NCBI GenBank assembly: GCA_963788655.1
Contig: CAWBHS010000076.1
Coordinates: forward strand, 96,001 to 160,000
DNA length: 64,000 nucleotides
Source of the DNA: an uncultured Verrucomicrobiae bacterium
GTDB taxonomy: Bacteria; Verrucomicrobiota; Verrucomicrobiia; Limisphaerales; JAFGQR01
Reading direction: 5' to 3'
Shown piece after piece: positions 25,396 to 55,958 of this stretch. Position 1 is the stretch's first letter. Each line of letters starts with the position of its first letter. The translations under genes were made by a program, and so were the position numbers. Below the pieces are notes generated by a model. It made no database searches. It was not told where the DNA came from and worked only from the letters and a program-made list of their open reading frames with translations.

Positions 25396-25599
25396 TCCTG
25401 CCGCGATTCGACGGAACTGTCGCTGCATGTGCTAAGCCGCGCAGTTTCCTAACGCAAGTTCCTTCCAGATAAAGCCGGTCAAAACTCATCAAGTGTCTCG
25501 CGCCGGAGCAAAGAGTCTTCCGGAATGACTCAATCTTGGACACTTCTCTCGCCCTGCAAGTGGCTGAGTATCAATTGTCAAAAAAATGAGGAAGATGAC

Positions 25600-25626
25600 T
25601 GAGTGACTCCGGGGAAGTGCCGATGA
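25600..25626 (+). promoter_or_regulatory. Sigma28 (FliA)-type promoter of flagellin 1
   Basis: TGAG-N15-GCCGATGA versus consensus TAAA-N15-GCCGATAA. Confidence 0.7.
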
Positions 25627-25644
25627 TGTCAGTGTCGGTAAACA

Positions 25645-25766
25645 AGGTGATTGGCCACCTGCAAGGGCCAAAGGGTCAACCGATGGACGCCCGAAACACA
25701 AAGGTCCATCACGCGGAAAGGATGACGCTCGCAAGGGCACACCTGTAAAGGTGGCTCACGGAAAGA
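25645..25766 (+). ncRNA. Structured flagellin 5' leader, copy 1 (predicted tandem pseudoknots and two GGA-loop sites)
   Basis: Same stems and spacing as copy 2, with compensatory changes. Confidence 0.7.
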
Positions 25767-25776
25767 GTCAACATAT

Positions 25777-26586
25777 ATGGTTATTAATACAAACGTATCC
25801 TCAATTAGCAGCGCCCGGCTGCTGGCAGAATCCTCGACGATGCTGTCCAAGTCGCTGGCCCGTTTATCCTCCGGTTCAAAAATAGTGTCCCCGGAAGACG
25901 ACGCGGCCGGTTTGGCGGTCTCGTTGCGGTTTGATGCTCAGATCAACCGCACCAACGCAGCCAACGCCAATGTCGGCAACGCGATCTCATTCAGTCAGAC
26001 GCAGGATGGCTTCCTGCAAAAAGTCGGCAAAGCCCTGGATCGGATGAGCGAATTGGCCATCCTGGCCCAAGACGTGACGAAGACCGATGACGATCGTGAC
26101 CTCTACAACACCGAGTTCTCGACGTTGAAAGACTACATCAGCAGTACGTCGGGCAAGGACTTCAACGGAGTCAGCCTGTTCAGTGCCACCGCCCTGTCGG
26201 TGACCATTGATTCGGACGCTACCGCGTTCTCCATGTCGAGCGTCGATCTGAGCACCGGCGACATTTCCACCGCAATTGGCAGCGGGATTAACATTTCGAC
26301 CACGGCCGCGGCCGCGACGGCATTGACGAATGTGAAAGACGCGATTTCCGAGTTGGCCACGAACCGATCCACGGTCGGGTCCAACATTTCGCGGTTGACT
26401 TACACCAGCGAACAGTTGTCCGTCCTGCGGGACAATCTGGCGGCGGCCAACAGCCGGATCAAGGACGTTGATGTCGCTGACGAGAGCACGCAGTTTGCGC
26501 GCTACAACATTCTGGTGCAGGCGGGAACCGCCATGTTGGCGCAAGCCAACGCGGTGCCCAGCGCGGCCTTGCGTTTGTTGTCTTAG
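25777..26586 (+). CDS. fliC: Flagellin 1 (269 aa, D0/D1 only)
   Basis: INTN, RLSSG, DDAAG, SRIKDVDVA, AMLAQAN. Confidence 0.97.
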   Translation: MVINTNVSSISSARLLAESSTMLSKSLARLSSGSKIVSPEDDAAGLAVSLRFDAQINRTNAANANVGNAISFSQTQDGFLQKVGKALDRMSELAILAQDVTKTDDDRDLYNTEFSTLKDYISSTSGKDFNGVSLFSATALSVTIDSDATAFSMSSVDLSTGDISTAIGSGINISTTAAAATALTNVKDAISELATNRSTVGSNISRLTYTSEQLSVLRDNLAAANSRIKDVDVADESTQFARYNILVQAGTAMLAQANAVPSAALRLLS

Positions 26587-27488: not shown

Positions 27489-29915
27489 ATGGATGACATC
27501 ACGAAAGAGTTCCTCATTGAGAATTACGAAAACCTCGACCGGCTGGACCGGGATTTGGTCATGTTGGAAAAGGATCCGCACTCCAAGGAGACGCTGGGCA
27601 ATATCTTCCGCACGATTCACACGCTCAAAGGCACGAGCGGGTTCCTCGGCTTTGGCAAGTTGGAAGCCGTTGCCCACGTCGGGGAAAACCTTCTGAGCAA
27701 GCTGCGCGACGGCGTGTTGACCATCAACCCGGAGATAACCAGCGCCCTGCTGGCCATGGTGGACGCCGTACGTTACATGCTCGGCCAGATTGAGGCAACC
27801 GGCCAGCCGGGCGAAAATGCCTTCTCTGACTTGATCAAACGGCTCACGCGGTTAAACGAAGGGAACAGTTTGCCACCATTGGAAGCGGTCCCGGCGGATC
27901 CGGCGGCTGCAAGCCCCGCTGAGCCCGTGTCCGCAGGCAGCGAACCCGCCCAGCCGGTCGCCGCCAGCGTGGAAGTATCGCCCCTGACGGCCGTGTCAGA
28001 CGCTCCCGTTCCGACTTCCGAGAGCACGCCGCCTACGGTCAATGCTGCCGTTCCCGCGCCCATCCCTCCCGCGCCGGAGCCGGCATCCGTCGCCAGCGAA
28101 GCGCCCGAGGCACGCAACTCGGCCGTATCGGACAGCAACATACGCGTGGATGTTGGGTTGCTTGACAAGCTCATGAACCTGGTCGGGGAACTCGTGCTGG
28201 CCCGCAATCAAGTTCTCCAATACACCAGCCAGTGCGCGGACAGCGCCTTTCTCGCCACCTCCCAGCGGCTGAACCTCATCACGACCGAGCTGCAAGGGAG
28301 CGTCATGAAGACGCGTATGCAGCCCATCGGCAACGTGTGGGGCAAATTGCCGCGCGTCGTGCGCGACTTGGCGGCCGCCTGCGGGAAAGAAGTGCGCATC
28401 GAGATGGAAGGCCAGGAAACCGAGCTGGACAAGACCATCATCGAAGCCATCAAGGATCCCCTCACGCACATCGTCCGCAACTCGATTGATCATGGCATCG
28501 AACGGCCGGAGGCCCGCGCCGCGCACGGCAAGCCGGCGGAAGGCTGCTTGAAAATGCGCGCCTACCACGAAGGCGGCCAGGTGATCATCGAGATTAGTGA
28601 TGACGGCTGCGGCATCGATTACGAGCGGGTCAAGCAGAAGGCCCTTCAGCGCGGATTGGTCACCGCCGAACAGGCCGCCCGCATGAGCGATCACGAGTCG
28701 CTGCACCTCGTGTTCCTGCCGAGCTTGTCCACTGCCGAAAAGATCACCAATGTGTCCGGTCGCGGGGTCGGCATGGACGTAGTGAAGACCAACATCGAGA
28801 AGATCGGCGGCACCGTGGACCTGCAGAGCCAGCCGGACGAAGGCACCACGCTCAAAATCAAGATCCCGCTGACCCTGGCGATCATCCCGGCGCTGATCGT
28901 GACCAGCGGTGGCGACCGCTTCGCCATCCCGCAAGTCAGCTTGTTGGAGCTGGTGCGGCTCGAAGGGGAGCAGGCGCGGCAACAGATCGAGTCGATTCAC
29001 AGTGCGCCGGTGTACCGCCTGAGGGGCCAACTGCTTCCGTTGGTTTATCTCAACAAGGAGTTGAAACTCGACGCAACAAGCACGGCAAGTCCGCTCGGCG
29101 AGACGGCCGCCGAGTCGCGCCCCGTTGGGCTCTCAGGCGACAAGGATGTCACGTCAACTGGCGGGCAGGAGGCCGGCCCCTCTTCACACGCAGACGCGGT
29201 CAACATCGTCGTGCTGCAGGCCGACGGCCATCCGTTCGGCCTGGTGGTGGACGAAATCAATGACACCGAGGAAATCGTCGTCAAGCCCCTGGGCAAACAG
29301 CTCAAAGGAGTCGCTTGCTTCGCCGGGGCCACCATCATGGGCGATGGCCGCGTCGCCTTGATTCTCGACGTGCTGGGTTTGGCCCAAGGAGCCAGCGTGG
29401 TTACGGAGGTACGGGACCGGACGTTGTTGGAAAACACCGCGCAGACCCGCAAAACGACCGATCCGAGGCAGACCCTGTTGCTGTTTGACGCCGGCCAAGG
29501 CAGTCGGATGGCCATTCCGCTCTCGATGGTCGCCCGGCTGGAAGAGTTTCCGCCGTCATCCGTCGAGCATTCCGGCGCCCAGGAAGTGGTGCAGTATCGC
29601 GGGCAGATTCTGCCGCTCATCCGTGTCTCAAAACATGTCCCGGCCGTGAACGTTACGGCCAGCGACGACCCCCAACAGCCCATGCAGGTGGTGGTTTACG
29701 CCGAAGAAGGCCGCAGCGTCGGGCTCGTGGTCGGGCGCATCAGCGATATTGTGCAGGAAACCATCACTGTCAAGCGTCATGCCTGCGGCAACGGCCTCTT
29801 CGGCTCGGTCGTCATCCAGGACAAAGTGACCGACCTGCTCGACGTGCAGGCGGTCATCCGCGCCGCCGATCCGGCATTTTATGGCGGCAAGGATCTCGTC
29901 CAACTCGCGGCGTGA
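27489..29915 (+). CDS. cheA: Chemotaxis histidine kinase CheA with two CheW-like domains
   Basis: FRTIHTLKG Hpt, Pro/Ala linker, HIVRNSIDHG, SGRGVGMDVV, tandem CheW domains. Confidence 0.97.
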   Translation: MDDITKEFLIENYENLDRLDRDLVMLEKDPHSKETLGNIFRTIHTLKGTSGFLGFGKLEAVAHVGENLLSKLRDGVLTINPEITSALLAMVDAVRYMLGQIEATGQPGENAFSDLIKRLTRLNEGNSLPPLEAVPADPAAASPAEPVSAGSEPAQPVAASVEVSPLTAVSDAPVPTSESTPPTVNAAVPAPIPPAPEPASVASEAPEARNSAVSDSNIRVDVGLLDKLMNLVGELVLARNQVLQYTSQCADSAFLATSQRLNLITTELQGSVMKTRMQPIGNVWGKLPRVVRDLAAACGKEVRIEMEGQETELDKTIIEAIKDPLTHIVRNSIDHGIERPEARAAHGKPAEGCLKMRAYHEGGQVIIEISDDGCGIDYERVKQKALQRGLVTAEQAARMSDHESLHLVFLPSLSTAEKITNVSGRGVGMDVVKTNIEKIGGTVDLQSQPDEGTTLKIKIPLTLAIIPALIVTSGGDRFAIPQVSLLELVRLEGEQARQQIESIHSAPVYRLRGQLLPLVYLNKELKLDATSTASPLGETAAESRPVGLSGDKDVTSTGGQEAGPSSHADAVNIVVLQADGHPFGLVVDEINDTEEIVVKPLGKQLKGVACFAGATIMGDGRVALILDVLGLAQGASVVTEVRDRTLLENTAQTRKTTDPRQTLLLFDAGQGSRMAIPLSMVARLEEFPPSSVEHSGAQEVVQYRGQILPLIRVSKHVPAVNVTASDDPQQPMQVVVYAEEGRSVGLVVGRISDIVQETITVKRHACGNGLFGSVVIQDKVTDLLDVQAVIRAADPAFYGGKDLVQLAA

Positions 29916-29936
29916 CCCCCTCAACTCCACACCCCT

Positions 29937-30398
29937 ATGACTGACAACAAACAATTCGCAACGTTCTTCCTCAACGGCCTGTTCTTCGGCGTCGAAGTCC
30001 TCAAGGTCCAGGAGGTCATCCGTTACCAGGAGATGACCCGCGTGCCGATCGCGCCCACCATGGTCCAGGGTCTCATCAACCTGCGCGGGCAGATCATCAC
30101 CGCGATCGACTTGCGCCGCCGGCTCGAGATGCCGCTGCGCGCGGAGGGCCAGCTCCCCATGAACGTCGTTGTCCGCACGGAGGACGGGGCGGTAAGCCTG
30201 CTGGTGGACGAAATCGGTGATGTCGTGGAAATCCAGGACGATACCTACGAGCGGCTGCCGGAGACGCTCACCGGCGTGGCCCGCGAACTCATCCGAGGCG
30301 TCTATAAGCTCAAAGAGCGTTTGCTGCTCATTCTCGACATCGAGCCCACGGTCAACCTGCCGGGTGGATTCAAGCGCGCGCCGTCGCCCGGGACTTGA
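29937..30398 (+). CDS. cheW: CheW
   Basis: VQEVI, GLINLRGQI, LLVDEIGDV. Confidence 0.96.
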   Translation: MTDNKQFATFFLNGLFFGVEVLKVQEVIRYQEMTRVPIAPTMVQGLINLRGQIITAIDLRRRLEMPLRAEGQLPMNVVVRTEDGAVSLLVDEIGDVVEIQDDTYERLPETLTGVARELIRGVYKLKERLLLILDIEPTVNLPGGFKRAPSPGT

Positions 30399-30620
30399 CC
30401 GTCCTGCTTGAGATCCCCCATCGACCCAGCCGGAAGCTATGGACAACATCAAGATTGAAGGCGCTAAAAACTCTGCCCCATTGAATCGGCCAGGTAATGG
30501 GGAGGGCGGGGCTGGCCAGCCCCGGAACGGTCACCCCCTGGCGATTAAGTTCCCACTCCAAATAAACCAGCGAACTCGCTTATCGCACAAAACAATCCCA
30601 CAAAACAAATACACACTCCT

Positions 30621-32663
30621 ATGCAAACTACACTGATTGCCCCCAAGAAAAACGGTGGCACCGCCGTCCGCCCCACTGCTAAAACCGGGCCCGGCACCGT
30701 GCCCAATGAGGCCGAGCACGAACTGATGGAACTGCGCGGCCAACTCGCCGCCATCAACAAGGCCCAGGCCGTGATCGAGTTCAACCTCGACGGCACGGTC
30801 ATCACCGCCAACGACAACTTCCTGAAGACGCTCGGCTATTCGCTCGACGAAATCAAAGGCGAGCATCACAGTATGTTTGTGGAGCCCGCCCACCGCGCCA
30901 GCGCCGATTACAAACAATTTTGGCGCGACCTCAACGACGGCAAGTTCCAGGCGGCGGAATACAAGCGCATCGGCAAAGGGGGCAAGGAAGTCTGGATTCA
31001 GGCCTCCTACAACCCGATCTTCGACGCCGACGGCCAGCCGTTCAAAGTCGTCAAATACGCCACCGACGTGACCGCCACCAAGTTGCAGAACGCCGATTAC
31101 CAGGGGCAAATCGCCGCTATCGGCAAGGCCCAGGCCGTGATCGAGTTCAACCTCGACGGCACGATCATCACCGCCAACGACAACTTCCTGAAAACGCTCG
31201 GCTATCGGCTGGAAGAGATCAAGGGCCAGCACCACAGCCTGTTTGTGGAGCCCGCCTACCGCGCCAGCGCCGAGTATCAGCAGTTCTGGCGCGACCTCAA
31301 CGACGGCAAGTTCCAGGCGGCGGAATACAAGCGCATCGGCAAGGGGGGCAAGGAAGTCTGGATTCAGGCCTCCTACAACCCGATCTTCGACCTCAACGGC
31401 CGGCCCTTCAAAGTCGTCAAATACGCCACCGACGTGACCGCCAACAAGTTGCAGAACGCCGACTACCAGGGGCAACTCGCCGCCATCGGCAAGGCCCAGG
31501 CCGTGATCGAGTTCAACCTCGACGGCACGATCATCACCGCCAACGACAATTTCCTGAAGACGCTGGGCTATACGCTGGACGAGATCAAGGGCAAGCACCA
31601 CAGCCTCTTTATCGAGCCATCGTACCGCGCCAGCGCGGAATACCGAAATTTCTGGCGCGACCTCAATGACGGCAAGTTCCAGGCCGATCGTTTCAAACGC
31701 ATCGGCAAAGGCGGCAAGGAAGTCTGGATTCAGGCCTCCTACAACCCGATCTTCGACCTCAACGGCCGGCCCTTCAAAGTGGTGAAGTATGCCACGGACG
31801 TCACCGCGGCGGTGCAGCAGGAAGAAAGCCTCAAAGTCACCTTTGCCGGCGTCACTCAAAACGCCCAGGCCCTCGGGGCCGCCTCCGAAGAACTGTCCGC
31901 CAACAGCCAGCAAATGGTGAGCAACGCGGAAGAAACCGCCACCCAGGCGGGCGTTGTCTCGGCCGCGGCCGAGCAGGTCAGCAAGAACGTTCAAACCGTG
32001 GCCACCGGCACGGAAGAGATGAGTGCGAGCATCAAGGAGATCGCCAAGAACGCCCAGGACGCCGCCAAGGTCGCCGCCACCGCCGTCAAAGCGGCTGAGA
32101 CGACGAACGCGACGGTGACCAAGCTGGGCGAAAGCAGCGCTGAAATCGGCAAGGTCATCAAGGTGATTACTTCGATTGCCCAACAGACCAATCTGCTCGC
32201 GCTCAATGCCACCATCGAGGCCGCGCGCGCCGGCGAGGCGGGCAAGGGCTTCGCCGTCGTGGCCAACGAAGTCAAGGAACTGGCCAAGGAAACCGCCAAG
32301 GCCACCGAAGACATCAGCCAGAAAATCGAGGCCATCCAGTCTGACACCAAGAGCGCCGTCACGGCCATTGCCGAAATCAGCACGGTGATTAACAAGATCA
32401 ACGACTACCAGAACACCATTGCCAGCGCCGTGGAAGAACAAACCGCCACGACCAACGATATCAGCCGCAATGTGGCCGAAGCCGCCAAAGGCAGCTCCGA
32501 GATCGCGCAAAACATCACCGGCGTGGCCCAAGCCGCCAAGAGCACAACCGTCGGCGCCAATGACACGCAACAGGCCTCGGCCGAACTCGCCAAGATGGCC
32601 GCCGAACTCCAGCGACTGGCCAACCAATCGAAGCAATCCTCCAGATCCTCGGTTGCATCGTGA
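30621..32663 (+). CDS. Soluble methyl-accepting chemoreceptor with three tandem PAS/PAC domains
   Basis: No TM; three AVIEFNLDG...WIQASYNPI repeats; [27 protein letters not shown] hairpin. Confidence 0.95.
30738..31805 (+). repeat. Three near-identical 366-bp PAS-coding tandem units
   Basis: Identical motifs recur at +366 and +732. Confidence 0.9.
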
Positions 32664-32873
32664 CTCAGCCACACGGGAACAATGCCACCCTGCGATCTGA
32701 GGCTTCCCGGGCCTTCAGGCGCTGCGTCGGCGCGCGCAGAAATGCGCTCGTCGGCGCCCGCCAAGTGGCGTCTCAGGCCCCCAACCCGGGGCTAAACCCC
32801 GCTCCCCGAAGCCGCGCGGCTTGGCCCTCCCTCCAGTCAACGGCTGAATCAGTTTCAAATCATAGGAAAGCAG

Positions 32874-33239
32874 ATGCGCGCACTCGTAGTTGATGATTCC
32901 AAAGCCATGCGAATGATCCTGGGAAGATCTCTCAAAGAAATCGGTTTCCAGGTCACGGAGGCGGGCGACGGCCGGGAAGCCCTCGCCCGCCTGAACCAGG
33001 GTGAGGCGGTGGACTTGTTGCTCGTGGACTGGAACATGCCGGTGATGAATGGATACGAACTGGTTTGTGCCGTTCGCGCCAATGTCCTCCTCGGCAACGT
33101 CCGCATTATGATGGTTACCACCGAAACCTCCATGAGCCAGCTCGAACAAGCTCTGGCCGCCGGGGCCAACGAATACCTCATGAAGCCGTTCACCAAAGAA
33201 CTGCTGCTCGAAAAACTCGCCTTGCTGGGCCTGAATTGA
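32874..33239 (+). CDS. cheY: CheY
   Basis: VVDDS, DWNMP, MVTTE, KPFT. Confidence 0.93.
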   Translation: MRALVVDDSKAMRMILGRSLKEIGFQVTEAGDGREALARLNQGEAVDLLLVDWNMPVMNGYELVCAVRANVLLGNVRIMMVTTETSMSQLEQALAAGANEYLMKPFTKELLLEKLALLGLN

Positions 33240-33245
33240 ACCGCT

Positions 33246-34379
33246 ATGCCCAAAATTCGCGTACTCATCGCCGACGACGCCGTTGTCATTCGGCGGCTGG
33301 TGTCCGATTGCCTCGCCGAGGATCCGGACCTCGAGGTCGTTGGCACGGCGGCCAATGGCCAGATCGCGCTCGCGAAGATCGAGCAGGTCAATCCTGACCT
33401 TATTACTCTCGACATCGAAATGCCGGTGTTGGACGGGCTTCAGACGCTGGCCGCCATCCGGAAAACGCATCCGCGCCTGCCGGTGATCATGTTCAGCACG
33501 CTCACCGAACGTGGCGCGAGCGCCACGCTGGACGCACTTTCCGGTGGGGCCAGCGACTACGTGACCAAGCCGGCCAATGTGGGCAGCGTGGGTGCCGCCA
33601 TGCAGCGCGTCCGCGAGGAATTGATTCCCAAGATCAAGAGCCTGTGCCGCCCCATGCCGGTTCGGACGGCCAATGACGCCTCCCGTCCGAGCGCTCAGGT
33701 CCAACGGACCATTGAGTTCCGGACCGCGATCCTCGCTCGCGCTGAGATCCTGGCCGTCGGCGTTTCGACCGGCGGTCCGAACGCGCTCTCGGCGCTGCTT
33801 CCGGAATTGTCCCGCAACTTTCCGGTACCCATTGTGATCGTGCAACACATGCCGCCGTTGTTCACCCGGCTCCTGGCCGAACGCCTCGCGGCCGTGTCGG
33901 GTGTGCCCGCGCGCGAGGGCGAGGCGGGCGCCCGGCTGCGTCCCGGAGAAATCTGGGTGGCTCCGGGTGGTTTTCACATGGAGGTCGAAGGCAGCACGGA
34001 TGGCACTCGACTGCGCACCTTCGAGGGGCCGCCCGAGAACTCCTGCCGTCCGGCAGTCGATGTGCTGTTCCGCTCCGTGGCGCGAGTGTTCGGCCCCCGC
34101 GCCCTCGCGGTTGTGCTCACCGGCATGGGACAGGATGGTCTGCGAGGCTGCGAATGCATCCACGAGGCGGGCGGCCAGGTGTTGGTCCAGGACGAAGCCA
34201 GCAGCGTTGTTTGGGGCATGCCCGGGGCGGTGAGCCAAGCCGGTTTGGCCGACAAAGTTTTGCCCCTGGGCGAACTGGGATTTGAGATTAACCGTCGCGT
34301 CTGCACCGGCAAAACCCGGGGGCAAATCCCGTTGTCGGCCACGCTCCCTTTGCCGCCTAAACTGGCCCGAACGTCATGA
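33246..34379 (+). CDS. cheB: CheB methylesterase (REC plus catalytic domain)
   Basis: [25 protein letters not shown]. Confidence 0.96.
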
Positions 34380-35194
34380 GCCCCGCCGACTTCGACTACA
34401 TCCGCGGTTTCGTCCGCGACCAGGCGGCCATCGTCCTGGAACCGGGCAAGGAGTACCTCGTCGAGTCCCGGTTGCACACCCTGGCGCACAAAGAGGATTT
34501 TGGTTCGGTGGACGCCCTCATCAGCAAGCTCCGCTCCGAGCCGATGAACGGCCTCCATCGGAAGGTGGTGGACGCCATGACGACCAACGAGACGTCGTTC
34601 TTCCGCGACCTCCATCCCTTCGAGACCCTGCGGAAATCGGTGTTGCCGGAGTTGATGGCCCGGGGCGCGCAACAACGGCAGTTGCACTTTTGGTGTGGCG
34701 CCGCCTCGACCGGTCAGGAGCCTTACAGCATCCTGATGCTGATCGCGGAACACTTCCCCGAACTGCTCGCGTGGGACTTCAAGTTCATCGCCACGGACCT
34801 TTGTGGCGAAGTTCTGGCCCGCGCCCGGTCCGGCCGCTTCAACCAGCTCGAAGTCAACCGCGGCCTGCCCGCCACGCTGTTGGTGAAATACTTCGTCCGC
34901 CAGGGATCCGACTGGGAAATTCGAGAGGATTTTCGGCGGCGAGTGGACTTCCGCGAGATGAACCTGGCCAAAGAGTGGCCCTGGCTGCCGCCGCTGGATC
35001 TGGTGCTTCTTCGCAATGTCCTGATCTATTTCGATCTCGAAAGCAAGAAGGCCATTCTCGCCAAAACGCGACGCTTGCTGCGCCCGGGTGGATTTCTTCT
35101 TCTGGGAGGCACGGAAACCACCTTCAACGTGGATGACGAATTCGAGCGCGTTACGTTCGACAAGACGACGTGCTATCGGTTGAAGCAAACGTGA
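34376..35194 (+). CDS. cheR: CheR methyltransferase
   Basis: [25 protein letters not shown]. Confidence 0.96.
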
Positions 35195-35200
35195 AACGCC

Positions 35201-36052
35201 ATGCTTATGATCGACCTCGCCCGCCTTATCGTCCAAGCCAATGAGCTGGCCCCGCTCCCGGCCAGCGCAGTGCGTCTGGCTGAACTGGTCGGCAGCCCGG
35301 AGTGTCATTTGGATGACGTGGCGGAATTGATCGCGTTCGATCAGGCCCTCACCGTCAAACTGTTGCTGGCGGCCAATTCGGCGGCCAGCGCCAGTGCGGT
35401 GCCGGTGGGCGATGTGCGGGAAGCCGTGTCCCGGATGGGCACCGCGCAAGTGCTGGCCCTCATCGTCGCGGCCAGCGCCCGGCCCTTCCTGCAAACCCGT
35501 GTGCCCACCTACGGTCTCGGCGAAGGCGCCTTGTGGCGGCATTCCGTGGCGGCGGCCGCGGCGGCGGAAACCGCGCCGAGTTTCTGTCAGGTGGAAGTGC
35601 CACCGGAAACCTTCACCGCCGCCCTCCTCCATGATGTGGGCAAGCTGGTCATGGGCCGCTTCCTTAGTCCCGAAATCCTCGGCTTCATCCAGCGGGCCCA
35701 CGAAGTCGATCATCTGGGCCAGTTGGAAGCCGAGTCGCTGCTGCTCGACGTGCATCACGGCGAGCTCGGCGGCCTCATCGCCCAGCATTGGAAATTGCCG
35801 CCCCGGGTCGTGCTGGGCATCACTTACCACCACAACCCGGAGCAGGGGCTGGATGTCATTTGTGACCTCACGTATCTGGCCAACCAGGTCGCCAAACGCA
35901 TCGAAGCCGGCCTCGACGGCCGGAAGTTCGACCTCGCTTTCTCTCCCGCAGTCGCCGAACGCCTGGGCCTGACGCCAAAAATGCTTAACAACCTTTGCCC
36001 GATCGCGGCGTCGCGCTTCCTCCAGGTGAGTCGCCGTTACAACGCGGTTTGA
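35201..36052 (+). CDS. HDOD domain protein
   Basis: LAPLP, DQALTVKLL..ANS, LWRHS, ALLHDVGK, WKLP, HHNP. Confidence 0.9.
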   Translation: MLMIDLARLIVQANELAPLPASAVRLAELVGSPECHLDDVAELIAFDQALTVKLLLAANSAASASAVPVGDVREAVSRMGTAQVLALIVAASARPFLQTRVPTYGLGEGALWRHSVAAAAAAETAPSFCQVEVPPETFTAALLHDVGKLVMGRFLSPEILGFIQRAHEVDHLGQLEAESLLLDVHHGELGGLIAQHWKLPPRVVLGITYHHNPEQGLDVICDLTYLANQVAKRIEAGLDGRKFDLAFSPAVAERLGLTPKMLNNLCPIAASRFLQVSRRYNAV

Positions 36053-36057
36053 AAGGT

Positions 36058-36549
36058 ATGAACGCCATCACTCCGAACCTCATCGACGACGTGTGCGACC
36101 TGCTGAGCCGCGGTGTCCGCGAAGTCTTCAACACCATGCTTGCTTTGGAGGCCGAGCCGGAGCCGCCACACGACTGGAGCGCTTCGGGCGAACCGCTCGT
36201 AGCCGGCTCCGTCGGATTTATCGGCGACGTCAAGGGCGTCGTCTATATCCAGGCGGCCGCCCCCTTCGCCCGCATCCTGGCCAACCGCATGTTGGGCTTG
36301 GCCGAGGCCGAGCTGGAGGGCGACGAGATGGTCAACGACGTTGTCGGTGAACTGAGCAATATGATCGTAGGTTCCGTGAAGTCCCGTTTGTGCGATCTCG
36401 GCGCCCCCTGCGTGCTGACCATTCCGTCCATCGTGCGCGGCCACAACTTCGAAATCGAGCCGGCCTGTTCGTCGGAGCGCCGCTCGCTGAGTTTCCGTTG
36501 CGGCACCGACCACATCGTGGTCGAACTCCTCATGAAACATTCCGCGTAG
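36058..36549 (+). CDS. cheX: CheX-family phosphatase
   Basis: SVGFIGDVKG, DVVGELSNMIVG (E-x-x-N), LTIPSIVRG. Confidence 0.9.
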   Translation: MNAITPNLIDDVCDLLSRGVREVFNTMLALEAEPEPPHDWSASGEPLVAGSVGFIGDVKGVVYIQAAAPFARILANRMLGLAEAELEGDEMVNDVVGELSNMIVGSVKSRLCDLGAPCVLTIPSIVRGHNFEIEPACSSERRSLSFRCGTDHIVVELLMKHSA

Positions 36550-37402: not shown

Positions 37403-37498
37403 TTACCCCAAAACTGCAGGACCGCCCATTGTTCGTGTTTCAAAAATTCATTTCCTATCACTTTCAGCCAAGCCCGAATAAAAAAATGGAAAAAATGC

Positions 37499-37534
37499 TA
37501 AAGCCAGTGAACGCCCTGCCGCGCCTGCCGATGT
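37499..37534 (+). promoter_or_regulatory. Sigma28-type promoter of flagellin 2
   Basis: TAAA at 37499 and TGAA at 37508; GCCGATGT at 37527 lies 15 nt after TGAA. Confidence 0.7.
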
Positions 37535-37552
37535 CCTGAGTGTTGAGAAGAC

Positions 37553-37682
37553 AGGTGGTTGGCCACCTTGAAACGCCAACCGGGGCAACGGTGAGCCCCC
37601 GCCAAACAACCGTTCACCAGGCGTCACGGACGTCGCTTAACAAAAAGAAAAAACCACCTCCAAAAGGTGGCTCACGGAAAGA
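37553..37682 (+). ncRNA. Structured flagellin 5' leader, copy 2
   Basis: Same stems and spacing as copy 1, with compensatory changes. Confidence 0.7.
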
Positions 37683-37688
37683 CGAAGT

Positions 37689-38498
37689 ATGGTTATCAAC
37701 ACAAATATTTCCGCACAGAGCGCGGCGCGTTTGCTGATGGACTCCTCCAGCATGCTGGCTAAATCGCTGTCGCGGCTGTCCTCCGGGTCGAAGATCACCT
37801 CACCTGAAGACGATGCGGCCGGGATGGCCGTCTCCATGCGGTTCGATGCCCAAATCAACCGCATCAATGCCGCGGGCACCAATGTCGGCAACGCGATCTC
37901 GTTCAGTCAGACGCAGGACGGCTTCCTGCAAAAAGTCGGTAAAGCCCTGGATCGGATGAGCGAATTGGCCATCCTGGCCCAAGACGTGACGAAGACCGAT
38001 GACGATCGTGACCTCTACAACACCGAGTTCTCGACGTTGAAAGACTATATCAGCAACACGTCGAACAAGGACTTCAACGGGGTCAGTCTGTTCAGCAGCT
38101 CCGCGCTCTCGGTTACGATTGATTCGGATGGCTCCTCCTTCGCCATGGATAACATCGATTTCAGCACGGGAGATGTGGCGGACGCCATCACCAGCGGCGT
38201 CACGATTTCGACTACCACCGCGGCGGCCGCGGCGCTGGAGAGCGTCAAATCGGCGATCGCCGAATTGGCCAGTGACCGCGCCACCATCGGGGCGAACATC
38301 TCCCGGTTGACCTACACGAACGAACAATTGTCGGTGCTGCGTGACAATCTCACCTCGGCTAACAGCCGTATCAAAGACGTGGACGTGGCCGAAGAAAGCA
38401 CCCAATTCGCGCGCTACAACATCCTGGTACAAGCCGGCACGGCCATGCTCGCCCAGGCCAACACGGTGCCGTCAACGGCCTTGCGACTTTTGTCATAA
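37689..38498 (+). CDS. fliC: Flagellin 2 (269 aa)
   Basis: Same-length paralogue of 25777-26586; flagellin N- and C-terminal motifs. Confidence 0.97.
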   Translation: MVINTNISAQSAARLLMDSSSMLAKSLSRLSSGSKITSPEDDAAGMAVSMRFDAQINRINAAGTNVGNAISFSQTQDGFLQKVGKALDRMSELAILAQDVTKTDDDRDLYNTEFSTLKDYISNTSNKDFNGVSLFSSSALSVTIDSDGSSFAMDNIDFSTGDVADAITSGVTISTTTAAAAALESVKSAIAELASDRATIGANISRLTYTNEQLSVLRDNLTSANSRIKDVDVAEESTQFARYNILVQAGTAMLAQANTVPSTALRLLS

Positions 38499-38628: not shown

Positions 38629-40332
38629 ATGGAGTTAGGACTATCCGGCCTGGCTTCGGGATTCGACTGGAACTCGCTGGTGGACCAGTTGGCCGAAGTG
38701 GAACGGGCGCCCGAAAGGCGCCTGCAGAGCGAGCAATCTGTGCTCGGTCAGCGGAATTCCGCCTACGGCAGCATCGCCACCCAATTGACCACTCTGAAAG
38801 AACGCGCCGATGCGTTGAAAGACGTCAGCTTGTTTGACGGCCGCTCGACGCGGGTGGGCGATTCGACCATCGCCACCGCTACTGCGGAAGGGGCCACGGC
38901 CTTGGGCTCCTACACGTTGAACATCACTCAGTTGGCTTCCTCGAGTCGGCAACTAGGGACGTCGAATGTGGGGCAGCCATTGAGTGCGACCAATGATGTG
39001 TCGAGCCTGGTGCTGAGCGAGGCTGCCTTTGCGACCGCGATCACGGCGGGAACGTTCACCGTCAACGGCGCGCAAGTGGATATTGAAACCGACGACACCC
39101 TCCAGGAGGTGTTCGACAAAATCAGCGACGCCACTGGGGGCGAAGTCACCGCCAGTTACGACAGTTCCACCGACAAAATCACCCTGTCCGGTTCCGGTAC
39201 CATCGTTTTGGGCAGCGCCACGGACACGAGCAATTTCCTCACCGTCGCCAAACTGACGAACAACGGCACTGACACCGTCGCCAGCACCTACTCCTTGGGA
39301 ACCGTCGCCCAATCGGCCACCCTGGCCAATGCCCACCTGGCCACAGCCATTTCCGATGGCGGCAGCGGCGCGGGTGAGTTCATGGTCAATGGGGTGAGCA
39401 TCCGCTTCGACGCGGCGACGGATACGCTGACTGATGTGTTGGGGCGGATCAACAATTCCAGCGCGGGCGTGACCGCGAACTACGACGCCACCGAAGACCG
39501 GTTGGTGTTGACCAACAAAGTGACGGGCGACCTCGGGATTGGGTTGACGGACGTGACCGGGAATTTCCTGGCCGCCACGGGATTGTCCAGTGGTACGCTG
39601 GCACGCGGCAACAACCTGCTGTACACGGTCAATAATGGCAGCGAATTGAGCAGCCGGTCGAACACGATTACGGCGGACAGTTCCGGCATTGCCGGGTTGA
39701 ACATCATGGCGTTGGCAGAGGGGACCAGTACCATTGAAGTCACCAGCGACACCACCACGATCAAGAAGGCTATTACCGATTTCATCAGCCAATACAACAA
39801 GGCGCAGTCGTTGATCGACAATTACACCGCCAGCAGCACGGATGCGGACGGGAAAGTCACTGCGGGTTTGCTCGCAGGACAGAGTGATACGTTTGAATTG
39901 AGCTCGAAGCTCCGGGGCAAAGTCAATGCAGTCATGTCCGGTTTGTCCGGCACGCTGGACCAACTGGCGGACTTGGGGATCGTTTCCAACGGCACGGACG
40001 ACACCTTGACGCTCAGCGACGCAACCGCCCTGGACAATGCGCTGGCCAACAACCTCGGTGGAGTCCGGTCGTTGTTTGCGGACAGCGCCAACGGTTTGGG
40101 CACCACGCTCAGCGCGTATCTCGAGAGTCTGGTGGGCGACGACGGTGAACTGGTGACCCGCCAGTCCACCCTCACCAAGCAAATCTCGGACATTGATACG
40201 CAGATCAGCGACATGGAACGGATAGTCCTGGCGAATCGGAAACAGATGATCAACAGCTTTGTGTCCATGGAAAAAGCCCAGGCCCAGATCAACCAACAAT
40301 TGCAGTACCTCACCAATCAGTTTGGCAATTAG
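38629..40332 (+). CDS. fliD: Flagellar cap protein FliD
   Basis: GLASGFDW..LVDQL N-terminus, ITQLA, FISQYN, C-terminal F..ME helix; follows flagellin. Confidence 0.93.
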   Translation: MELGLSGLASGFDWNSLVDQLAEVERAPERRLQSEQSVLGQRNSAYGSIATQLTTLKERADALKDVSLFDGRSTRVGDSTIATATAEGATALGSYTLNITQLASSSRQLGTSNVGQPLSATNDVSSLVLSEAAFATAITAGTFTVNGAQVDIETDDTLQEVFDKISDATGGEVTASYDSSTDKITLSGSGTIVLGSATDTSNFLTVAKLTNNGTDTVASTYSLGTVAQSATLANAHLATAISDGGSGAGEFMVNGVSIRFDAATDTLTDVLGRINNSSAGVTANYDATEDRLVLTNKVTGDLGIGLTDVTGNFLAATGLSSGTLARGNNLLYTVNNGSELSSRSNTITADSSGIAGLNIMALAEGTSTIEVTSDTTTIKKAITDFISQYNKAQSLIDNYTASSTDADGKVTAGLLAGQSDTFELSSKLRGKVNAVMSGLSGTLDQLADLGIVSNGTDDTLTLSDATALDNALANNLGGVRSLFADSANGLGTTLSAYLESLVGDDGELVTRQSTLTKQISDIDTQISDMERIVLANRKQMINSFVSMEKAQAQINQQLQYLTNQFGN

Positions 40333-40369
40333 AGCCGCACCCGAAATCCGCCACCCGGACAAAACTCAA

Positions 40370-41173
40370 ATGCAAGAACTCCAAAACAGCATCCGTTCGA
40401 GCCAGCTCGCTCCGCCCGATGGATCGCGGCGAAAGCCCGGCAGGGTCCGACGCTTTTGGTTTTCGAGGCGACGGATTTCGAATCTCGGAATTCGGATTTT
40501 TGCGGCACTGAGCGGGTTGCTCACGGCCTCGCTGCTCAGCGGCTGCCTTAGCCCTTCGCAAATCGATCAAGCGCTGGGCCCCTCCTATCATCCCGACAAC
40601 ATCCATTGTATTTATCCGGTGATCCCCGACCAGTTGCGCCGGGTGGCCGTGCTGCCGATCAGCGTCAATCAGGGCGATTGGCAGGCCGCGCGCGAACGAG
40701 AGTATTTGCAGCCGGTGTTGAATGCGGAATTCGGCAAAGCCAAGAAATTCGAGTTGGTGATGGTAAGTCCGCAGCAACTGCGCGCCTGGACCGGACGCGC
40801 AGCCTGGCGCACCGAAGAACCGTTGCCCGACAACCTGTTGGGCCAGATGCAGGCGCAACTGGCCTGCGATGCCGTCTTGTTTACCCATTTGCACGCCTTT
40901 CACGCCTACAAACCCATGGTCATGGGGTGGAAGCTCGAACTCGTGGAATGCCGTAACCAACAGATTTTCTGGGCGGCCGACGAAGTGTTCGATGCCTCGG
41001 ATGAGCGGGTGGTGCGGGCCGCGCAGAAGTATTCCCAGCAGCACGGCGAGAGTTGGTGGCGGCCCTTGGCCGACCCGGCGAGCATCCTGAGTTCCCCGCG
41101 GCGGTTCAGCCAATACAGTTTGAGCGCCTTGTTTGCCACCCTGCCCGAACGATGTCCCAGTGAACCATTGTGA
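40370..41173 (+). CDS. Putative lipoprotein in the flagellar locus (start uncertain)
   Basis: Lipobox LLSGC; RRVAVLP alpha/beta domain. Confidence 0.7.
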   Translation: MQELQNSIRSSQLAPPDGSRRKPGRVRRFWFSRRRISNLGIRIFAALSGLLTASLLSGCLSPSQIDQALGPSYHPDNIHCIYPVIPDQLRRVAVLPISVNQGDWQAAREREYLQPVLNAEFGKAKKFELVMVSPQQLRAWTGRAAWRTEEPLPDNLLGQMQAQLACDAVLFTHLHAFHAYKPMVMGWKLELVECRNQQIFWAADEVFDASDERVVRAAQKYSQQHGESWWRPLADPASILSSPRRFSQYSLSALFATLPERCPSEPL

Positions 41174-41999: not shown

Positions 42000-42377
42000 A
42001 TGAACACGGAAGATCGATTACTGCAACTCTACGACCAGTGGCGTGTCTTCACCGAATCGGAGCGCGAGGCCATTCACGCCTCCGACTGGGTTAAAGTAAC
42101 CGCCGCGCAGGCGGAAAAGCAGCGGCTTCAGGAGGAGATTATGCTGGCGGGCGAAGCCGCGGCCGATCCGGCCAGAATGCGGCCGCCTACCCCACGGTTG
42201 CAGGCCGTCGGCGAACATCTGATTTTACTCGAACGCGAAAACGCCGCGGCGCTGGCGGACAAGCGCCGGGCGATGGAACTAGAACAACATGGGCTGGACC
42301 AAACCAGCCGCAACTTGCAGCAAGTTCACCGGGCGTATGCCCAAGGACGGGAACCCGCATGGCAATCATATTCCTGA
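42000..42377 (+). CDS. FliT/FlgN-like helical export chaperone (putative)
   Basis: 125 aa all-helical protein after fliS, ends with AY motif. Confidence 0.55.
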   Translation: MNTEDRLLQLYDQWRVFTESEREAIHASDWVKVTAAQAEKQRLQEEIMLAGEAAADPARMRPPTPRLQAVGEHLILLERENAAALADKRRAMELEQHGLDQTSRNLQQVHRAYAQGREPAWQSYS

Positions 42378-42423
42378 CCAGTCCAACGGGCCTCGCCGCG
42401 CGTGCCACTTGCTGCGCTGGACG

Positions 42424-43725
42424 ATGAATGCCCCACCAACGCAGGATAGACCTGCTGAACCAAGCAATGGTTGCGCCCGCATCCTGGTGCTGGATGACGA
42501 AGAAGTCATCACCCTGGCCTTGCGGGAAACCCTGATCCGGGAAGGCTACGAAGTCGTGGCCGAGACCGATCCGCTCCGCGCTCTCCAGCGGGTGCGTGAC
42601 ACGCCCTTTGCCCTGTTCCTGACCGACCAGCGCATGCCCGCGCTCAGCGGCTTGGAATTCTTCATCCAGGCCCGGGAGATCCAGCCGGACGCCACCCGCA
42701 TCCTCATGACCGGGGTGGTGAACCTCGACACCATCATCGAAGCGATCAACCAGGGGGAGATTTATCGGTTTATTGTCAAGCCCTGGTTGCGCGAGGAATT
42801 GCTGGTCACCATCAAGAACGGCATGCAGCGTTACCAGTTGATCCGGCGCAACCACGAGTTGCAACGGACCACGCTGGGCATGAACGAGGAGTTGGGCCGG
42901 TTGAATGCCTCGCTCGAGCAGCAGGTGGCCCGGGAAGCCGCCCAAAACCATAAACTCGCCGAACTCAACCAGGTGCTCGAACAGAACTTGCAACGGTCCG
43001 TCGAGCTTTGTTTGAAGACGATGGAAACGTTCCATCCCGGCCTGGGCACGCAAGCCCGGCGAGTACACGAATTGTGCCGTTTGATGGCGGACGACCTGCG
43101 GATGTCGCCCGATGAACGCGAGGTGTTCGAATTCGGCGCCTGGCTGCACGACATCGGTTTGATGAGCGTGCCGCGGCGGCTGATCAAGCTCTGGCAGCGC
43201 ACCCCCGAGAGCCTCAACCGGTCGGAACTCCAACAGATTCAACAGCACCCGGTGCTGGGACAGGAACTGGTCTGTTTCATGCACCATTTGTCGAACGTCG
43301 GCATCATCATCCGCGCCCACCACGAGCGGTTCGACGGCACCGGTTTTCCCGACCAATTGACCGGCGAGGAAATCCCCTGGCTGGCGCGACTGTTGGCGGT
43401 GGTGTGCGACTACGTCGAGAGTCATCGCCCCGAAGTCGAAGCGCGCGAACGCATCCAGAATGGCAGCGGCAACTGGTACGATCCCGAAGCCGTGCGGGCG
43501 CTGCTGCGCGTCGTCCGGCGTGCCCCCAGCTCATCTCGCGAGCGCGAAGTGCTCATGGCCGAGCTGAGTCCGGGCATGGTGACGGCCAACGGGATCTACA
43601 CCGCAAACGGCTTGCTGCTGATTCCGTCCGGCCAAACCCTCAGCGAGCCGTTGCTGGACAAACTCCGCAACCACAACCGGGTCAATCCCATTCGCCAGAC
43701 GTTGCTGGTGTACCTGTTAACCTGA
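42424..43725 (+). CDS. Response regulator with HD-GYP-like output domain
   Basis: VLDDE, TDQRMP, KPW; LHDIG, HHERFDGTGFP. Confidence 0.9.
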   Translation: MNAPPTQDRPAEPSNGCARILVLDDEEVITLALRETLIREGYEVVAETDPLRALQRVRDTPFALFLTDQRMPALSGLEFFIQAREIQPDATRILMTGVVNLDTIIEAINQGEIYRFIVKPWLREELLVTIKNGMQRYQLIRRNHELQRTTLGMNEELGRLNASLEQQVAREAAQNHKLAELNQVLEQNLQRSVELCLKTMETFHPGLGTQARRVHELCRLMADDLRMSPDEREVFEFGAWLHDIGLMSVPRRLIKLWQRTPESLNRSELQQIQQHPVLGQELVCFMHHLSNVGIIIRAHHERFDGTGFPDQLTGEEIPWLARLLAVVCDYVESHRPEVEARERIQNGSGNWYDPEAVRALLRVVRRAPSSSREREVLMAELSPGMVTANGIYTANGLLLIPSGQTLSEPLLDKLRNHNRVNPIRQTLLVYLLT

Positions 43726-47811: not shown

Positions 47812-48636
47812 ATGCCTTTGGCCGTGCAGGATGCAGAAGCTTACCGCTTGATCAGCGCTTTGGTTTATGAGCGTTGTCGGATCCGTTTGGATGACAGCAA
47901 ACGTCAACTCATCAGCACCCGTTTGGGTAAGCGCTTGCGGCAATTGGGCTTGAGCAATCTGTCCGACTACTGCCGAGAACGGCTGCGTGGACCCGAGCGG
48001 GAAGATGAGATTACGCATGTCATCAACGCGCTCAGCACTAATTTCACCCATTTCATGCGCGAGCCGGACCATTTCGACGTGCTGGTCCATCAGGCGTTGC
48101 CGGCGCTGCTAGGGTCCACTCCCCGCCCCTTCCAAGTTTGGAGCGCCGCCTGCGCCACCGGCGAAGAACCCTACACGATCAGTTTCTTTTTGGAGGAAGC
48201 CTATCCATTGGCGGCAGGCTGGGACTGGCAGGTGCTGGCCACGGATGTTTCGACCAAGGCGCTGGACAAAGCCATTCCCGGCATTTACCCGGAAGAGCGG
48301 CTGCGGGGACTGCCGGCCGGTTGGGCGCGCAAGTATTTTCAACGAGGAGTGGGTAATTACGCCGGCCAATACCGAGTCAAACCGTACCTGCGCCAGCGCA
48401 TCCGTTTTCAGCAACTTAATTTGTTGGGGGATTACGGCTTTCGTGATTCGTTCGCGGTGGTCTTTTGCCGAAACGTAATGATCTACTTCGACCGGCCCAC
48501 CCAGGAACAACTCGTCAACCAACTTGGCCAAATGATTGCTTCGCAGGGTTTCCTGCTGATTGGCCATGCCGAAAGCTTGAATGGCTTGAACGTGCCATTC
48601 CGGTGTCTGCGGCCCAGCATTTATCGGAAAACCTAG
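47812..48636 (+). CDS. cheR: CheR methyltransferase (second copy)
   Basis: STNFTHFMRE, CATGEEPYT, CRNVMIYF, GHAES. Confidence 0.95.
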   Translation: MPLAVQDAEAYRLISALVYERCRIRLDDSKRQLISTRLGKRLRQLGLSNLSDYCRERLRGPEREDEITHVINALSTNFTHFMREPDHFDVLVHQALPALLGSTPRPFQVWSAACATGEEPYTISFFLEEAYPLAAGWDWQVLATDVSTKALDKAIPGIYPEERLRGLPAGWARKYFQRGVGNYAGQYRVKPYLRQRIRFQQLNLLGDYGFRDSFAVVFCRNVMIYFDRPTQEQLVNQLGQMIASQGFLLIGHAESLNGLNVPFRCLRPSIYRKT

Positions 48637-48643
48637 TTTTTGA

Positions 48644-49166
48644 ATGCCGTCGCCGTCGCTCACCGGATTTGCCCAACAGGTCGTCGTGGGGATCGCGGAT
48701 CTTGGCGGTGTCGAATAATCCGAATGTCGTGCTGACCACCTATTCGCTGGGCTCGTGCCTCGGGGTGACCATCTACGATCCGGTAAGCTGCGTGGGCGGT
48801 CTGGTCCACGTCATGTTGCCGGATTCCGGACTCGACGCCACCAAGGCCGCGGCTCAGCCGGCCATGTTTATTGACTCAGGCGTGGCGGCCTTGTTCCGCG
48901 CCGCTTACGGTCTGCGGGCGGAAAAACATCGCGTCCAAATCTGCGTGGCCGGCGGCGCGCAAGTGCTGGACCAAACCGGTTACTTCAGCATTGGCAAGCG
49001 GAATTACCAAGCCCTGACACAATTGCTCCAACAGCACGGGCTGGTCATCCGCGCCGAACACGTCGGGGGCTTGGTCAGCCGCTCGATGCACCTGGATTTG
49101 GCGACCGGCAATGTCCGTTTGAAAATCTCCGGCCAACCGCGCGAGGTATTGCTATGGAAGAACTAG
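48644..49166 (+). CDS. cheD: CheD deamidase, frameshift near 48700
   Basis: MPSPSLTGFAQQVVVGIADL then, in another frame, TYSLGSCLGV..HVMLP..AGGA..IGKRN..VGG. Confidence 0.88.
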
Positions 49167-50003: not shown

Positions 50004-50005
50004 TC

Positions 50006-51112: not shown

Positions 51113-51399
51113 TCCGCGCCTTGGGAACGCGTATGCGTTCGACTGCGCCAAGGGCCGACGGGGAAACACGCGGGTGAAGGCCCATCAGACCGTGGCCGGG
51201 CCTTCTGGCATTCAGGTGGGTGGTTTAGTGCTAGCTGACCGTTCAAATGCTTCCTCACAGTCGCGGCTTCAAACCGAGCCGCGTCCGTGAGGGTGCATCA
51301 CAAACCCATTCCCAATTGGCTCCGCAGTACCGGAATGCAGAAGGTGAGCACGCCCCGCAACGATTCCACCGCGTCATCCTTCACCCGCAACGCCCCAAA

Positions 51400-52539: not shown

Positions 52540-52559
52540 AAGACTTCGGGGACGGACGG

Positions 52560-53054: not shown

Positions 53055-53230
53055 AAAAGGGAAGGGAAGAAGAAATCCAAAGGCCGAAGGGCCAGACTCC
53101 ACCAACGGGCAGCCGGAGCGAAACGGCTCCCGGGGGCGCTATTCGGATTGCTCTGCCTCTGCATGTGCGTTTTGAAATTCGTTCGGATTTCGGATTTCCC
53201 AACGGCTTCCGCCGCCAGGTTCGGTTGCAC

Positions 53231-53247
53231 AGCAAAAACATGACCAA
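53231..53247 (-). promoter_or_regulatory. Possible sigma54 -24/-12 site upstream of cheX
   Basis: TTGGTCATGTTTTTGCT on the minus strand (GG-N10-GC). Confidence 0.35.
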
Positions 53248-53291
53248 GCCTTCAGGCTCTGGAATTCTGGGGTTGCAAATATTATTGCGCT

Positions 53292-55928: not shown

Positions 55929-55958
55929 AAGGGTGGACTACTGTGATTGCTTCAAGGT

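Follow-up and report, generated by a model that had tools for sequence, protein, structure and literature searches.

A leader with tandem pseudoknots and candidate CsrA sites precedes flagellin genes in Verrucomicrobiota

Few bacterial proteins are made in larger amounts than flagellin. The CsrA-FliW checkpoint on its translation is thought to be ancestral to flagellated bacteria; to our knowledge, only Firmicutes, Campylobacterota and spirochaetes have had it dissected. Here we describe a leader of ~145 nucleotides (nt) that precedes each of two flagellin genes in a stretch of 64,000 nt from an uncultured Verrucomicrobiae bacterium (contig CAWBHS010000076.1; this whole stretch is called the window, and its G+C content is 60.8%), and we compare it with the closest described systems. 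Two GGA stem-loops in the Bacillus subtilis hag leader block ribosome binding, and FliW antagonises CsrA there (PMC13443453). Campylobacter jejuni flaA has two ANGGA stem-loops, the second of which lies over the ribosome binding site (RBS); compensatory changes support this structure, and CsrA and FliW regulate the gene (PMC4894983). The leaders described here resemble hag in having a sigma-28/SigD-type promoter and, in some relatives, the gene order flgK-flgL-fliW-csrA-flagellin (PMC13443453), and they resemble flaA in having two ANGGA-loop hairpins with the second covering the RBS. Unlike hag, the ~145-nt leader contains an extra module, composed of a 5′-proximal hairpin (P0) and two pseudoknots (PK1 and PK2), as well as a spacer hairpin (P5), and CsrA binding is predicted here. 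The flaA untranslated region (UTR) is 45 nt long and consists of the two stem-loops alone, whereas here ~80 nt more of conserved structure precedes them (PMC4894983).

The tandem-pseudoknot P0-PK1-PK2 module is a previously undescribed structural module, and we infer from motifs, structure and gene content that the 3′ half of the leader is probably a new member of the CsrA-regulated flagellin leaders of the hag/flaA type. We know of no tandem pseudoknot domain in hag, and none turned up in the literature searched. Tandem H-type pseudoknots that stack into a rod are found in tobamovirus 3′ UTRs and in transfer-messenger RNA, and the flagellar cis-regulatory motifs in Rfam include Termite-flg and flg-Rhizobiales. 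These Rfam motifs and the cyclic di-GMP (c-di-GMP)-I/II riboswitches also lie upstream of flagellar genes, but none of their models matches here. With regard to the 5′ module, 5′-terminal stem-loops stabilise bacterial mRNAs, as indicated by titles in the reference list of one source (PMC3997798). As in the ompA and papA (Escherichia coli) and aprE (B. subtilis) leaders, structure is predicted to lie at the 5′ end of a highly expressed mRNA or within a few nt of it; those leaders are simple hairpins, whereas here there is a hairpin and two pseudoknots. In addition, a flaviviral exoribonuclease-resistant RNA (xrRNA), which is a folded pseudoknotted RNA, mechanically halts bacterial RNase J1 in vitro (PMC5760640). 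The xrRNAs are likewise compact pseudoknotted folds, and they act by shape; they form a ring-like three-way-junction fold rather than two serial H-type pseudoknots, and there is no sequence or Rfam similarity between them and the module.

The words, spacing and coordinates that an initial annotation of the window gave for the two leaders are present exactly as it had them. The two flagellin genes and the elements of their leaders are the following; S1 and S2 are the crossing stems of PK1, and S3 and P3 those of PK2.

25777-26586, + strand: flagellin gene 1, 269 amino acids (aa); Pfam Flagellin_N 5.5e-24, Flagellin_C 1.3e-23
37689-38498, + strand: flagellin gene 2, 269 aa; Pfam Flagellin_C 1.4e-25, Flagellin_N 5.1e-25
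25633-25644, + strand: copy 1 P0, a weak 5′-proximal hairpin, TGT-CGGTAA-ACA
25645-25671, + strand: copy 1 PK1; S1 is AGGTG 25645-25649 with CACCT 25656-25660, and S2, crossing S1, is TTGGC 25651-25655 with GCCAA 25667-25671; a single A lies between AGGTG and TTGGC, and loop L3 is GCAAGG
25673-25710, + strand: copy 1 PK2; S3 is GGG 25673-25675 with CCC 25690-25692, and P3, crossing S3, is GATGGAC 25682-25688 with GTCCATC 25704-25710 around a 15-nt loop that starts GCCC
25713-25728, + strand: copy 1 P4, a GCG-N10-CGC hairpin with an AAGGAT loop (GGA 25720-25722); candidate upstream CsrA site, BS1-like
25740-25753, + strand: copy 1 P5, the variable spacer hairpin CACCT-GTAA-AGGTG (CACCT 25740-25744, AGGTG 25749-25753)
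25753-25779, + strand, including the ATG at 25777: copy 1 P6, GGCTC-ACGGAAA-GAGTC (GGA 25760-25762), overlapping the Shine-Dalgarno (SD) region
37541-37553, + strand: copy 2 P0, the start of a P0-PK1-PK2 stretch at 37541-37618
37553-37557 with 37564-37568 and 37558-37563 with 37575-37580, + strand: copy 2 PK1, with S1 AGGTG/CACCT and S2 GTTGGC/GCCAAC
37581-37585 with 37597-37601 and 37590-37596 with 37612-37618, + strand: copy 2 PK2, with S3 CGGGG/CCCCG and P3 GGTGAGC/GTTCACC, the P3 loop beginning CCCCG
37621-37636, + strand: copy 2 P4, loop ACGGAC (GGA 37628-37630), followed by an A-rich linker
37654-37659 with 37665-37670, + strand: copy 2 P5, CCACCT/AGGTGG
37676-37678, + strand: GGA of the copy 2 SD region, which reads ACGGAAA; the P6 stem is almost absent, and the ATG is at 37689; the part from P4 to the ATG spans 37621-37691

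The two flagellins are paralogues with 81% protein identity; a chemotaxis cluster lies between their genes, and fliD and fliS lie downstream. Both leaders, the second with its layout at 37553-37682, have the same words and spacing (in copy 1, N10 separates the GCCAA of PK1 from the GATGGAC of P3), and P3 of copy 2 differs from that of copy 1 by compensatory changes. The sequence GCTCACGGAAAGA precedes the ATG in both copies and ends at 25766 in copy 1. In the window copies, and only there, the P5 strands are the same words as the S1 strands of PK1 (25645-25660 with 25740-25753; 37553-37568 with 37654-37670).

With flagellin 1 as the query, 256 relatives were confirmed in the genome collection, and the best 80 of these were fetched, giving 78 loci with 4-kb flanks; the phylogenetic range of the leader seen here is therefore a lower bound. 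Nearly all of these loci are labelled Verrucomicrobiota, Limisphaerales, Pedosphaera or Limisphaera, and their flagellins are 63-76% identical to the query. Some contigs that carry a Limisphaerales-type flagellin and the leader are labelled Akkermansia muciniphila, Bifidobacteriaceae, Omnitrophota, Acidoferrum or Limnocylindria (e.g. L004, L007, L009, L014 and L035); they are probably mis-binned or mislabelled metagenome-assembled genomes. When the 170 nt upstream of each flagellin were read, a common layout appeared in nearly all relatives: a sigma-28-type promoter, P0 (often tgtcGCAAgaca), PK1, PK2, P4, an A-rich linker, P5, P6 and the ATG. Specifically, PK1 reads N-GGC-G-GTTGGC-R-GCC-N′-N6-GCCAAC; PK2 has RGGG directly after PK1, followed by an A-rich linker, and the loop of its 7-bp stem begins with G-CCC/CCU; P4, 2 nt after PK2, reads CGGC-A(N)GGAY-GCCG; P5 is a variable G+C hairpin, mostly CCCC/GGGG; and P6 reads GACUC-A(N)GGAAG-GAGUC and is followed by the ATG.

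A covariance model was built from 80 aligned leaders with the nested helices only (P0, S2, P3, P4, P5 and P6) and searched against both strands of the window and the 78 loci, 635,563 nt in total. There were 109 matches at E<=0.01 and 96 at E<=1e-20. Seed sequences, which the model is bound to match, account for 79 of the 109; the other 30 are new. For 104 of the 109, including 27 of the 30 non-seed matches, the open reading frame (ORF) directly downstream matches the window flagellin by blastp. The same architecture recurs before flagellin genes, which bears out the proposal that this is a conserved structured leader. The window contains exactly two matches, at the two leader sites (90.0 and 86.6 bits; the match to copy 2 spans 37529-37691). 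The five exceptions include two flagellins, one whose start reads ATC (L069) and one whose ATG was missed by ORF picking (L072). Two others are leader-like elements with a sigma-28 promoter, P4 and P6: one (L048, 1034-1150) lies before a 128-aa non-flagellin ORF (MIIQFNPS...), and the other (L041, 3237-3355) before a 34-codon remnant (MIINIQS...). The last is a weak partial match on the opposite strand (L075, 18.9 bits), which we take as chance. One seed locus, L076, has no leader, and its flagellin begins ~20 nt after csrA; six divergent leaders (L039, L041, L048, L071, L072 and L078) appear to keep PK2, P4 and P6, with PK1 and P5 varied or lost. The leader is specific to flagellin genes, and its structure is real.

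The compensatory changes that the initial annotation saw between two copies extend to a much wider alignment. Ninety-six leaders were aligned with the model, and the crossing stems S1 and S3 were added as extra brackets; because these stems had been left out of the model, the alignment is not biased toward them. In this alignment 87.9% of cells are paired; column shuffles give 77.9%, none of 500 attaining 87.9%, and slid partners give 31-48%. Of the 39 pairs, 33 show changes on both sides. A sequence-only MAFFT alignment of the 80 seeds, which takes in the leaderless L076 and the six divergent leaders, gave 82.8% paired against 75.2% when shuffled and at most 47.4% when slid. On both alignments, pairing in each of the nine helices is far higher than in the shuffled or slid controls. 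Pairing in the 96 leaders is 84.8% for P0, with double changes in all 4 pairs; 93.9% for S2, with double changes in 6 of 6; 79.2% for P3, with double changes in 6 of 7; 94-95% for P5, also with double changes; and 83.1%, 97.9% and 93.4% for S3, P4 and P6, respectively.

The two crossing stems deserve separate mention. In most relatives S1 has 4 bp (N-GGC/GCC-N′), with a nearly invariant GG/CC core and an outer pair between the base 5′ of GG and the base 3′ of CC. This outer pair is formed in 71 of 96 leaders (AT 25, TA 19, CG 15, GC 10), compared with 34.8 +/- 4.3 in shuffles, none of 5000 of which reach 71, and with 31 and 24 in slid registers. The pseudoknot proposed in the initial annotation, AGGTG/CACCT crossed by TTGGC/GCCAA, thus covaries, except for its fifth S1 pair. 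That pair (columns 52-60) is formed in 21 of 96 leaders against 24.5 expected and has no family-wide support. The proposed second pseudoknot is upheld in the same alignment, in which both S3 and P3 covary. At S3 pair 84-107, 15 of the 17 leaders with A have T opposite, compared with only 22 of the 74 with G (Fisher p 1.2e-5, not tree-corrected), and pair 83-108 is formed in 59 of 96 against 35.5 +/- 3.8 when shuffled, with C83 facing G108 in 12 of 12. On a FastTree tree of the 96 downstream flagellin proteins, we also determined how often, at a minimum, a pair had changed from one Watson-Crick type to another. The outer S1 pair switched 21 times, two S2 pairs 19 times each, the two variable S3 pairs 9 times each and two P3 pairs 14-20 times; with so many switches, the covariation does not reflect a few inherited events.

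The geometry of the two pseudoknots is also well preserved. L1 of PK1 is 1 nt long in 89 of 96 leaders, L2 of both pseudoknots is 1 nt in all 96, and L3 of PK1 is 6 nt in 72. No nucleotide separates S2 from S3, while the P3-P4 junction is 2 nt in 94 of 96 and the P5-P6 junction 1 nt in 93 of 96. In PK1, the 1-nt L1 spans the 6-bp S2 and the 6-nt L3 the 4-bp S1; in PK2, an L1 of 4-7 nt spans the 7-bp P3 and an L3 of 6-8 nt an S3 of 3-4 bp. By general pseudoknot geometry, these lengths should allow both helices of each pseudoknot to form at once. Because S1, S2, S3 and P3 each covary and the loop lengths are compatible, both H-type pseudoknots (in a-b-a′-b′ order) are, as judged from the alignments, real features of the leader family. 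Furthermore, a rigid, quasi-continuous stack of S1, S2, S3 and P3 is suggested by where the module lies, at the 5′ end, by its A-rich loops, and by the 0-nt junction between the pseudoknots along with the fixed spacing to P4.

The impression that the leader belongs to no described family agrees with searches of Rfam 15 (4227 models), which gave no match anywhere in the window at gathering thresholds. At E<=10, leader 1 had no match, and leader 2 and the best-scoring, consensus-like relative had only chance-level matches to unrelated families, among them a partial CsrC (6.8 bits, E 5.3). The c-di-GMP-I/II and other Rfam riboswitches gave no match even at E<=10, and Rfam 15 run on 17 of the loci returned two tRNAs only. 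The literature searched contained no description of a pseudoknotted flagellin leader or of a Verrucomicrobia flagellin RNA motif.

Downstream of the pseudoknots, the two A(N)GGA motifs are the most conserved bases of the whole leader: all 96 leaders have GGA in both the P4 and the P6 loop, the two lying 33-48 nt apart, and the linker before P5 is 48% A. P4 reads CA.GGA[TC]G in 68 of 96 leaders, resembling the SELEX consensus for CsrA, ruACArGGAugu with GGA in a loop (PMC5694010). P6 reads A.GGAA[GA] in 86 of 96 and runs into the SD purines; its loop and 3′ strand, A(N)GGAAGGAG or A(N)GGAAAGAG, lie a few nt before the ATG and overlap the SD. The P4 and P6 motifs thus carry the signature of CsrA sites and are candidate sites, in line with the original view that the ANGGA hairpins fit CsrA. 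At a possible third CsrA site, the 5′ strand of S3 (S3a), GGA is present in 77 of 96 leaders and absent from both window copies; this GGA would be expected anyway because an A-rich loop follows GG.

The genes for such a system occur beside flagellins in relatives. A motif scan followed by Pfam and NCBIfam searches identified fliW-csrA gene pairs in 5 of the 78 loci (L011, L020, L037, L053 and L076), with CsrA at Pfam 2e-23 and NCBIfam TIGR00202 90.1 bits (cut-off 70.1) and FliW at Pfam 1e-34. The order is flgK-flgL-fliW-csrA in L037, and in L076 a flgL-like ORF with Flagellin_N only precedes fliW; a flagellin follows csrA in L011, L020, L053 and L076. Four of the five loci also have a leader-bearing flagellin. 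The flagellins that follow fliW-csrA have no model match themselves (L076 3212-4804; L011 1856-3624, L020 1601-3319 and L053 1776-3609, these three on the - strand), which means that some flagellin paralogues escape the leader. In the short csrA-flagellin gap of L076, no GGA or obvious SD motif was seen.

Upstream of the leaders lie the following elements.

25599-25626, + strand: copy 1 sigma-28-type promoter, with a weak -35-like CTGAGT at 25599-25604 and the -10 element GCCGATGA at 25619-25626
37527-37534, + strand: copy 2 -10 element GCCGATGT

Class 3 flagellar promoters recognised by sigma-28 (FliA) have TAAA-N15-GCCGATAA-like elements, and by this consensus the promoter upstream of the leaders is of the sigma-28 type. 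The family profile is CT[A/C]AAG-N14-GCCGAT; CGAT is kept in 91-94 of 95 upstream regions, and 68 of 95 have T[AC]AA[GA] within the interval searched, -25 to -14. In both window copies the -10 is good and the -35 matches only in part. P0 begins 13 nt past the C of CGAT in 76 of 96 leaders, the point at which a sigma-28 start would be expected, so the transcript should begin at or just before P0; because the sigma-28-type promoter sits upstream of the pseudoknots, the transcription start site very probably lies 5′ of them. Neither a sigma-70-like promoter nor a + strand terminator was found inside either window leader. On the minus strand, a terminator-like hairpin with a T-run at 37651-37673 is the P5 and A-rich linker of leader 2 in reverse and is probably incidental. 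Both window promoters contain an identical A-tract, AAAAAAATG[AG] (25581-25590 and 37483-37492), ~35-40 nt upstream of the -10 CGAT, which could be an UP-like element.

We favour, with a probability of roughly 0.6, the reading that this is a sigma-28-transcribed flagellin mRNA leader of a Limisphaerales/Pedosphaera-like group in which a CsrA-operator 3′ half is joined to a protective or scaffolding 5′ half. A CsrA dimer would bind P4 at its A(N)GGA loop and P6 at its A(N)GGAA loop, over the SD, and would block ribosome binding to the flagellin mRNA; FliW, freed upon flagellin export, would remove CsrA and allow translation, and P5 would in effect bring the two CsrA sites closer together. P0-PK1-PK2, starting almost at the 5′ end of the transcript, would form a compact, nuclease-resistant block that keeps the abundant flagellin mRNA stable while CsrA holds translation off, and it may present the P4 site on a rigid scaffold. 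For this specific role of the 5′ half, a protective block that also scaffolds the CsrA site, we put the odds slightly below even. Rather unlikely, in our judgement, is the bolder idea that P0-PK1-PK2 is a new class of regulatory RNA, either an RNase-blocking, rod-like 5′ cap or a sensor of a flagellar protein or second messenger. If true, the cap would be a bacterial analogue of the viral xrRNAs that keeps CsrA-silenced flagellin mRNA poised, and the sensor would be a second checkpoint on flagellin translation besides CsrA-FliW.

Several points weigh against this account of a CsrA operator with a protective or scaffolding 5′ half. By the standards of the family, both window copies are degenerate, with a weak P0, a mismatched P4 and, in copy 2, a P6 stem that is nearly gone. 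Folding of the single window leaders by minimum free energy is unremarkable (z = -1.07 and -1.27), although these scores are uninformative because pseudoknots are absent from that folding model. The search for csrA and fliW that the initial annotation suggested succeeded in the related loci described above and not in the window itself, where neither gene was found within the 64 kb by Pfam on 61 ORFs or by a six-frame motif scan. The shuffle controls ignore relatedness, the protein FastTree tree is approximate, and conversion between paralogues could distort it. Covariation supports each stem and cannot prove that crossing stems coexist. Finally, the results would fit a stabiliser, a scaffold or the binding site of another factor alike.

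We regard one alternative as unlikely while giving it more weight than any other rival: some factor besides CsrA may use the tandem pseudoknots as its operator or docking site, which would add a second regulatory input to flagellin translation. Candidates are FliW, FliS, flagellin, a ~200-aa protein encoded between fliD and fliS, or the export or localisation machinery. The invariant G-C pairs of S1 and S3 and the fixed junctions suggest a recognisable shape, the domain always co-occurs with flagellin genes, and in C. jejuni flaA mRNA is localised (PMC4894983). The ~200-aa ORF (40571-41173, + strand, inside an ORF at 40259-41173) has tblastn matches in 40 of the 78 related loci and belongs to the same late-flagellar cluster. 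Neither Pfam nor NCBIfam has a family that matches it, its nearest Atlas clusters are Verrucomicrobiota 'hypothetical protein', and it may be an uncharacterised late-flagellar protein. However, none of the candidate proteins has an RNA-binding signature, and a passive stabiliser predicts the structural conservation equally well.

Readings in which the pseudoknots respond by changing state fare worse. H-type pseudoknots whose loops are rich in A are a common fold among aptamers, no known family explains the domain, and genes for an HD-GYP-type response regulator and for HDOD proteins lie close to the flagellar genes of the window, all of which would suit a riboswitch aptamer for c-di-GMP or another motility signal that acts via the downstream hairpins. 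Against this, the positions of the pseudoknot domain conserved at >=85% are almost all paired, the only unpaired one listed being A121 (82 of 96), and so few conserved unpaired nucleotides argue against a small-molecule pocket; there is, moreover, no Rfam riboswitch match at E<=10, no terminator, and no sign that the domain co-evolved with the SD in a pairing that could serve as an expression platform. A riboswitch is therefore quite improbable. We give still less credence to a conformational switch in which the pseudoknot stems and P5 swap partners and so expose or hide the RBS. Such alternative pairing had been suggested by the repeated AGGTG/CACCT words, and the P5 words are indeed identical to the S1 strands in both window copies, but relatives have N-GGC/GCC-N′ in S1 and mostly CCCC/GGGG in P5, so that the coincidence is not conserved. 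In a partner-permutation test across the 96 leaders, true partners were no better than permuted ones: for duplexes of the pseudoknot domain with P5, the energy averaged -12.45 against -12.54 +/- 0.17, and the corresponding values were -11.02 against -11.33 for the SD and -15.44 against -15.36 for P4. An aptamer and a partner-swapping switch are both unlikely because there are few conserved unpaired nucleotides and no co-evolved pairing with the SD, P4 or P5. We can give almost no weight to the idea that the resemblance merely reflects shared ancestry of duplicated flagellins, or a leader peptide, and that the RNA structure has no function. The window flagellins are paralogues, as noted, and an out-of-frame ORF of 65 codons runs through leader 2; yet pairing is kept by compensatory changes in 96 leaders whose stem sequences vary and whose pair types have switched repeatedly, and no comparable + strand ORF is listed in leader 1.

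On sequence evidence, these leaders would extend the CsrA-FliW logic to Verrucomicrobiota. The tandem-pseudoknot module, with ~100 examples and many independent compensatory changes, is a ready candidate for a new RNA family, and it offers a concrete case for how a silenced mRNA is protected or further controlled.

The window also has two chemotaxis gene sets, at 27489-36549 and 47812-63998. They include a CheA in which three CheW-domain stretches were matched, CheW, CheB and CheR (each at least twice), CheX and HDOD proteins, together with several methyl-accepting chemotaxis proteins of the PAS, Cache and hemerythrin types. The HD-GYP-type response regulator is encoded at 42289-43725.

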